Shown here one piece after another: positions 1 through 696 of a DNA stretch of 696 nucleotides. The stretch's first letter is position 1; every line of letters starts with the position of its first letter. Below the pieces are notes generated by a model that worked only from the letters and a program-made list of their open reading frames with translations, did not search any database and had not been told where the DNA came from. Both the position numbers and the translations under genes were made by a program. This DNA is from a phage: sequence record AY744077.1; one strand, written 5' to 3'.

Positions 1-696
1 GGGCTTTAAGCTCTCACCGGCCCAACGAGCACCACGGATATCAATCGGGTCCTGGAAGTCAAACACACCAACTTTAGCGCCAACGGTGTTGGTCATACCA
101 GATTTACCAACCTGTGCAGAGTAGTTAATCCAATCGATAACTTCACGGTTGATTTCGAGCATAATTTCGGTAGCAAGGATACCGGACAGTTCAGCATCTG
201 CATCCATACCGTGTACTGCACGAAGGTCCTGTGCCAGTTCGATAGAGTAGCTTGCTTTCAGCTGACGAGATTTAGCTTCGATAACTTGTTTGTCGATGCG
301 GAAGCCCATTTCGTTCCACGGGTTATCCTGGGAACCGTTAAAGCCTTCCTGGAGTTCAGCGATAGAAGTAGCCATACCTTCAGCCAATTCAGCCAACTTA
401 CCAGCTTCAATCAAAGCGGTAACAGCAACATCCAGTTTAGCGGCATCAGTAGCAGCAGCATCAACGGTTACGGCTTCAACAGCCTGGAAGTGTGCAGCAC
501 CGGTAGCTTCGAAGAAGTGAGAATAAATTTTACCAACTTCCAGAACTTTACCTGCAGCCAGTGCTTCAAAAGTCTGAGCAGCACCCTGACCAGAGAACAT
601 AGCGTCCGGAGCATACATTGGATGGAAAGCTTCTTTAGCGCCAGCAGCGATAGGGTCTTTACCATAAACTGCACGAAGGGCAAATACCTGGCCGGT
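1..696 (-). CDS. 23: Major capsid protein, T4-type (gp23 family, HK97-like fold); internal fragment, partial at both ends
   Basis: Minus-strand frame with codons starting at window position 696 is open for all 232 codons (no stop; no start or stop boundary in window). Translation read by hand: TGQVFALRAVYGKDPIAAGAKEAFHPMYAPDAMFSGQGAAQTFEALAAGKVLEVGKIYSHFFEATGAAHFQAVEAVTVDAAATDAAKLDVAVTALIEAGKLAELAEGMATSIAELQEGFNGSQDNPWNEMGFRIDKQVIEAKSRQLKASYSIELAQDLRAVHGMDADAELSGILATEIMLEINREVIDWINYSAQVGKSGMTNTVGAKVGVFDFQDPIDIRGARWAGESLKP. Long runs match the T4 gp23 sequence as I recall it (roughly the middle of the ~521-aa protein); this is recognition from memory, not a database search. Strong preference for translationally favoured codons fits a very highly expressed late structural gene. 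Confidence 0.93.
379..396 (-). repeat. Perfect 9-bp direct tandem duplication (ttcagccaa x2 on + strand; ttggctgaa x2 on coding strand) encoding LAE-LAE in frame within the capsid CDS
   Basis: Read directly from the sequence: + strand positions 379-387 and 388-396 are both ttcagccaa. In the gp23 frame these are codons 101-106 of the window translation (L-A-E-L-A-E). Confidence 0.8.

Follow-up and report, generated by a model that had tools for sequence, protein, structure and literature searches.

The window, by which we mean the whole 696-nt stretch of DNA that was analyzed, is, judged by its sequence, a single internal piece of gene 23 (g23), a member of the Gp23 family of phage major capsid proteins. 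Its principal features, numbered along the window and, for residues, along both the window translation and T4 gp23, are as follows.

Positions 1 to 696, minus strand: internal fragment of gene 23 (gp23, major capsid protein), equal to T4 gp23 aa 121-352.
Positions 577 to 663, minus strand: conserved stretch equivalent to linker 1 of the T4 gp23 insertion (I) domain (T4 aa 132-160, window aa 12-40).
Positions 376 to 582, minus strand: divergent block of 69 residues (window aa 39-107, T4 gp23 aa 159-227).
Positions 385 to 576, minus strand: variable core of the block, bounded by its outermost differences from T4 (aa 41-104, T4 gp23 aa 161-224).
Positions 144 to 168, plus strand: predicted site, with three mismatches, of MZIA6, the standard reverse primer for g23 as a diversity marker; the gene strand encodes EIMLEINR here.

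An open frame of 232 codons on the minus strand, with neither a start nor a stop codon, occupies the full length of the window and is its sole long open reading frame. The translation matches Pfam family PF07068 (Gp23) over aa 1-228 with 153.6 bits (E = 1.3e-44; cut-off, 24.4 bits), and residues 1-231 align without gaps to aa 121-351 of the T4 gp23 chains 8t9r_A, 6uzc_a, and 5vf3_A (E of about 1e-121). At least 80% of the window is covered in 818 phage records and, among the matches listed, the annotation is major head or capsid protein. The T4 vertex protein gp24 (PDB 1YUE), a paralogous HK97-fold capsid protein that also has an I domain, matches aa 122-203, weakly (E = 5e-7, 33 bits) and only in the region after the block; the fragment is clearly gp23 rather than gp24. 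A single-sequence AlphaFold2 model of the fragment has a mean pLDDT of 42; the identity of 82.5% to T4 gp23 suggests an HK97 fold whose insertion domain is borne on linkers equivalent to the E-loop.

On both strands of the window, no RNA element was found in Rfam at E <= 1, no promoter in a scan for the T4 late-promoter motif TATAAATA, and no meaningful repeat element in a repeat search. Short open reading frames (up to 76 aa) in the remaining frames and on the plus strand were rejected as genes, being off frame or antisense to an Ala-rich coding region. A 20-nt direct repeat of 85% identity (window positions 207-226 and 660-679) encodes LRAV[H/Y]G at aa 158-163 and aa 7-12, and may be a chance recurrence or the trace of an internal motif.

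The initial annotation, made from the letters of the sequence, had singled out positions 376-582 of the minus strand as a central block that differs from T4 gp23 between flanks that are nearly the same. The 69-residue peptide quoted there is an exact translation of this interval, and the T4 sequence used there for the comparison agrees with the T4 genome record OZ035787.1, our T4 reference, which over this stretch is the same as PDB chains 8t9r, 6uzc, and 5vf3. In the alignment, identity to T4 is 36/38 residues (94.7%) in aa 1-38, 38/69 (55.1%) in the block, and 115/122 (94.3%) in aa 108-229, a contrast of block and flanks that is far from random (Fisher exact test, p = 7.9e-12). The proposed boundaries, aa 39-107, are right to within two to three residues of the outermost differences from T4, at aa 41 and 104. 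The description of the downstream flank as nearly identical up to aa 232 stands as far as aa 229; its final three residues, LKP, are the product of a 1-nt deletion that is discussed below.

As had also been proposed, the block keeps the length of its T4 counterpart, without gaps, and is rich in alanine (29% in the window versus 20% in T4). It carries 31 substitutions relative to T4, 16 of which have negative BLOSUM62 scores, and they include a switch from charged or polar to small or hydrophobic residues, where T4 has AEIKKQM and the window has VAVTALI. Overall, the window shares 80.1% nucleotide and 82.5% amino acid identity with T4. T4 gp23 (PDB 5VF3, 6UZC, 7VS5, and 8T9R; genus Tequatrovirus) is thus of the same family and length, with flanks that are 94 to 95% identical, and belongs to a separate genus, with 55% identity over its aa 159-227. 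An origin from T4 itself or from another Tequatrovirus was ruled out, near identity to T4 g23 throughout the fragment being absent, and the source is a T4 relative rather than T4, as the annotation had it.

The position of the block relates it to the known architecture of the T4 head. In cryo-electron microscopy of the T4 head, the I domain of gp23 is held by two long linkers and lies atop a neighboring subunit, forming protrusions of the capsid surface; the linkers are engaged in contacts both inside a capsomer and from one capsomer to the next, and Soc binds at sites that they form with the N-fist (PMC9546572). Linker 1 of the T4 gp23 I domain comprises aa 132-160 (PMC9546572), and its equivalent in the window (aa 12-40) differs from T4 only by I16V and A29G. 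The first block residue unlike T4 is gp23 aa 161, directly after this linker, which places the block in the surface-protruding I domain. For the other end, residues 143-154 form linker 2 of the gp24 I domain (PMC9546572) and, by the offset of the gp24 alignment, would correspond to about aa 234-245 of gp23, just past the end of the block. By this correspondence with a paralog, the C-terminal limit of the I-domain body would lie close to the end of the block, so that aa 41-104 (T4 aa 161-224) probably represent the body of the I domain, with boundaries that are approximate. The suggestion that the variable block is exposed on the capsid surface therefore agrees with the cryo-electron microscopy of T4 at the level of the domain, and exposure of individual residues is likely by analogy.

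The contrast is a property of the family. We aligned 80 Tevenvirinae g23 fragments (14 GenBank loci and 66 IMG/VR loci), among which 75 sequences are distinct. Over the 75 distinct fragments, mean column entropy is 1.49 bits in aa 39-107, compared to 0.58 and 0.35 bits for its flanks; along the fragment, entropy goes up at aa 36-45 and comes down again at aa 101-110. Identity to the window is lower in the block than in the flanks in every one of the 80 relatives, with medians of 55% and 92.5%, and the same contrast is found against Mosigvirus, Kanagawavirus, Gelderlandvirus, and unclassified Klebsiella and Yersinia phages (p = 1e-8 to 1e-13). The general statement that g23 combines conserved and variable blocks is borne out across this set. 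Divergence in the block is thus, on these alignments, not peculiar to the phage from which the window derives; the block is a variable zone in every relative compared.

To which lineage the window belongs was addressed by megablast against 50,697 phage records, of which 872 matched, and the best 40 were examined by identity. These best 40 of the 872 matches share 95.1 to 97.7% nucleotide identity with the window over all 696 nt and are JS98-like coliphages, among them IME540, ABTNLsp5, WG01, vB_EcoM_005, QL01, PSD2002, Bp7, JS10, JS98, and IME08; for every record among them whose taxonomy was retrieved, the genus is Dhakavirus. In total, 42 phage records lie between 95 and 99% nucleotide identity. 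The block alone (207 nt) matches 84 records by megablast, and the 30 listed are phages of the Dhakavirus group. The next genus is Kanagawavirus, with 81% nucleotide and 88% amino acid identity. By way of background, the ICTV criterion at the genus level is about 70% nucleotide identity over the genome.

A placement of the fragment in a g23 phylogeny, which the initial annotation had proposed as a check, gave the same answer. In neighbor-joining trees of all 229 residues and of the block alone, the window stands beside JS10 and Esco_phi_B-01 inside the Dhakavirus set; bootstrap values for the exact genus node are 45 to 64%, and a tree of the flanks only leaves the genera unresolved. Four IMG/VR genomes of about 170 kb (L018, L020, L022, and L023) branch as sisters of the Dhakavirus set, with 93 to 94% amino acid identity to the window; their flanks are 98% and their blocks 80 to 86% identical to it, so that the I domain is once more where the differences sit.

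On the 696 nt of this one conserved gene, then, the window is assigned to a coliphage of Dhakavirus, an established genus (the JS98/JS10/WG01/Bp7 group, Tevenvirinae). The JS98 type has been a recognized type of T4-related genome since at least 2010 (PMC2993671). The proposal that the divergent block marks a distinct T4-like lineage is consequently not upheld, because the lineage is the long-known JS98 group, or Dhakavirus, with dozens of sequenced genomes. It had been noted that this proposal would lose its basis if the block were as conserved as the flanks against a phage already sequenced, the fragment being essentially identical to it throughout. The first is what we see with JS10 and Esco_phi_B-01, whose protein matches at 225/229 residues (block, 67/69; flanks, 158/160; p = 0.59); as to the second, no record among the 50,697 is identical to the window, the best reaching 97.7% of nucleotides. 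Within Dhakavirus as a whole, the block is 88 to 97% conserved.

Why the block diverges between genera was approached by Nei-Gojobori estimates of dN and dS for the block (aa 39-107) and the flanks. Against T4, the block has a dN of 0.373 and a dS of 0.859 (dN/dS of 0.43) and the flanks have a dN of 0.046 and a dS of 0.759 (dN/dS of 0.06); dN is thus about eightfold higher in the block and dS is similar, a comparison of limited power at dS values of 0.8 to 0.9, which are near saturation. Roth01 behaves like T4; in these two comparisons, the dS values of block and flanks are no more than about 1.3-fold apart, and their dN values are six- to eightfold apart. The dN contrast also holds against CGG4-1, where block dS is about 1.8-fold higher than flank dS, and, on few differences, against JS98 and IME540. 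Similar dS together with an approximately eightfold difference in dN points to weaker constraint in the block rather than to a foreign origin.

A foreign origin would mean that the block is a recombination cassette from a distant T4-like lineage and that its contrast with the flanks stems from ancestry, not from constraint. Segments of genes are exchanged among T4-like phages, mosaicism on a small scale is present within Dhakavirus, and in the comparison with Mosigvirus mar005P1 the block dS (0.77) exceeds the flank dS (0.42), so that some lineages may have exchanged this segment. For the window, however, the dS values against T4 and Roth01 speak against this explanation, the tree of the block and the tree of the whole fragment give the window the same position, and the contrast recurs in all 80 relatives, as expected of a property of the domain rather than of one transfer event. 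We regard a distant cassette as very improbable.

Positive diversifying selection on the block, beyond weak constraint, is another explanation; the I domain might, for instance, change to match Hoc or Soc or to escape recognition of the capsid surface. It would suit the surface location of the domain, the many unfavorable replacements relative to T4 described above, and dN/dS values of 0.25 to 0.46 in the block versus 0.04 to 0.11 in the flanks. On the other hand, mean dN/dS in the block is well under 1, and the conservation of the block within Dhakavirus indicates slow change on that timescale. A mean dN/dS of 0.43 is compatible both with relaxed constraint and with diversifying selection at a subset of sites, which the mean does not separate. 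On balance, we consider diversifying selection unlikely as the explanation.

The reading that we hold with high confidence is that the window is a piece of a Dhakavirus g23 in which the block is the surface I domain, with one history in common with its flanks and a different constraint. The I domain of the HK97-fold gp23 would project from the outer capsid surface on its two linkers, over the neighboring subunit; the N-terminal flank would represent linker 1, and the C-terminal flank would represent linker 2 and what follows it, up to T4 aa 352. Near-invariance of the flanks would most plausibly be due to contacts with other subunits, with other capsomers, and with Soc, whereas most positions of the I domain would face the solvent and tolerate changes of amino acid. 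Block and flanks would then share their history, with replacements accumulating about eight times faster in the block, and for this reason the block would be divergent relative to T4 and yet nearly identical to that of other dhakaviruses.

Below the level of the genus, three further features of the window stand out.

Positions 428 to 576, minus strand: segment (gene nt 121-269, aa 41-90) that has the JS10/Esco_phi_B-01 allele wherever that allele differs from the WG01/IME540 type.
Positions 70 to 72, minus strand: codon 209, GTT (Val), A209V, the sole private amino acid change; the codon is GCT (Ala) in every Dhakavirus reference.
Positions 8 to 10, minus strand: 1-nt deletion (TTTAAAG to TTTAAG on the plus strand), by which ESFKAL reads ESLKP.

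Two groups of references are closest. The gp23 genes of JS10 (EU863409/NC_012741) and Esco_phi_B-01 (OP292222) have the length of the window without gaps and are identical to it in nucleotides over gene nt 115-272; elsewhere they differ by 23 to 24 nt, mostly within two intervals (gene nt 18-114 and 273-301) in which the window has the WG01/IME540 allele, and by four amino acids (D31N, I96L, K100Q, and V209A). The highest nucleotide identity, 97.4 to 97.7% over the whole window, is with vB_EcoM_IME540 (MT150133), Salmonella phage ABTNLsp5, and Escherichia phage WG01 (the wg01 group of Dhakavirus), and the differences, 15 to 17 nt and six to seven amino acids, fall mostly in gene nt 85-269 (A29S, Q41E, G49S, and V90A). 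Mismatch maps accordingly give a fragment that is identical to JS10 in gene nt 115-272 and of the WG01/IME540 type in nt 1-114 and 273-687. A maximum chi-square test with permutation, applied to three parent pairs, gave p values of 38/2000, 20/2000, and 0/2000.

In the IME540, ABTNLsp5, and WG01 genomes, the gene order around g23 is g22, g23, a small reverse open reading frame, and g24. What lies between g23 and g24 varies from phage to phage: most dhakaviruses have a small reverse hypothetical open reading frame of about 90 aa there (L004, L008, L009, L010, and L014, at about 2455-2737), and IME08, CGG4-1, and MHG19 have a segD-type GIY-YIG homing endonuclease on the reverse strand (L005, 2465-3093; L011, 2446-3093; and L013, 2447-3081).

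Three substitutions, at gene nt 78, 345, and 626 (window positions 619, 352, and 71), occur in the window and in none of 19 Dhakavirus references; the first two are synonymous. The third is A209V, at a position where 74 of the 80 relatives have Ala, and a 29-nt pattern containing the V209 codon had no exact match in IMG/VR or among the JGI metagenome contigs, so that neither collection yielded a longer contig with this allele. The 1-nt deletion appears as one gap over 697 reference bases in all 14 Dhakavirus loci and is seen likewise in the pairwise alignment with IME540. It lies in a homopolymer at about gene nt 688 and puts the last three codons off frame. Because only 9 nt separate it from the sequence end and the gene is essential, it is probably an error of the read end, of sequencing, or of assembly, and it hints at imperfect sequence quality.

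There are three possible sources of the mosaic: (i) natural recombination among co-circulating dhakaviruses, (ii) shared ancestral polymorphism, and (iii) a chimera. It is quite possible, if short of probable, that the window arose by natural recombination, within the gene, of two co-circulating Dhakavirus alleles; about 150 nt of a JS10-type I domain (aa 41-90) would then reside in a gene of the WG01/IME540 type, with a private, surface-proximal A209V. If this were true, it would suggest that close relatives trade the exposed domain of the capsid as one unit. Alternatively, the mosaic, the three private substitutions, and the frameshift might all be artifacts of the laboratory or of assembly, for example, a PCR chimera of two co-occurring dhakaviruses or errors at read ends. 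The deletion so close to the end would indeed break an essential gene, the mosaic breakpoints fall in stretches that both parental types have in common, and searches of the phage records, IMG/VR, and the JGI metagenomes yielded no identical sequence. The private substitutions nevertheless look like natural variation, two being synonymous and the third conservative (Ala to Val), and other dhakaviruses, e.g., PSD2002 and vB_EcoM_005, have other combinations of the same polymorphisms, which indicates that natural reassortment of alleles is common. An origin of all three features in artifacts is a serious possibility that we nonetheless doubt. The allele itself adds a small variation to a phage type already known and may fall within an existing species.

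A search of 5.8 billion proteins at E <= 1e-60 returned only three partial proteins, with 75 to 83% identity. The GenBank phage records hold hundreds of gp23 sequences closer to the window than these three, and close T4-like capsid proteins seem to be absent from, or unreachable in, the index of 5.8 billion proteins.

Because g23 serves as a diversity marker, the relation of the window to the standard amplicon is of interest. The MZIA6 site, for which the primer sequence was taken from PMC10101079, has one match in the window and none in 200 shuffles, and it lies downstream of the block in the gene. The window itself was rejected as a MZIA1bis/MZIA6 amplicon, since the MZIA6 site is internal and the sequence runs 143 nt beyond it. 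The site of the forward primer MZIA1bis is presumably just upstream of the window end, outside the window.

The contrast between the variable block and its flanks is real and highly nonrandom; its explanation is a textbook one, and it matters little beyond bookkeeping, both the variable surface domain and the lineage being already known. The g23 variable block was recognizable from the letters of the sequence, without database searches. Divergence from T4 does not equal a new lineage, because what the block shows is the signature of one genus, the well-sampled JS98/Dhakavirus group. Nearly all of the phylogenetic signal of the fragment resided, in these comparisons, in the I-domain block, and the flanks by themselves did not resolve the genera. 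Our findings are consistent with the use of g23 amplicons that span the block as markers of diversity.
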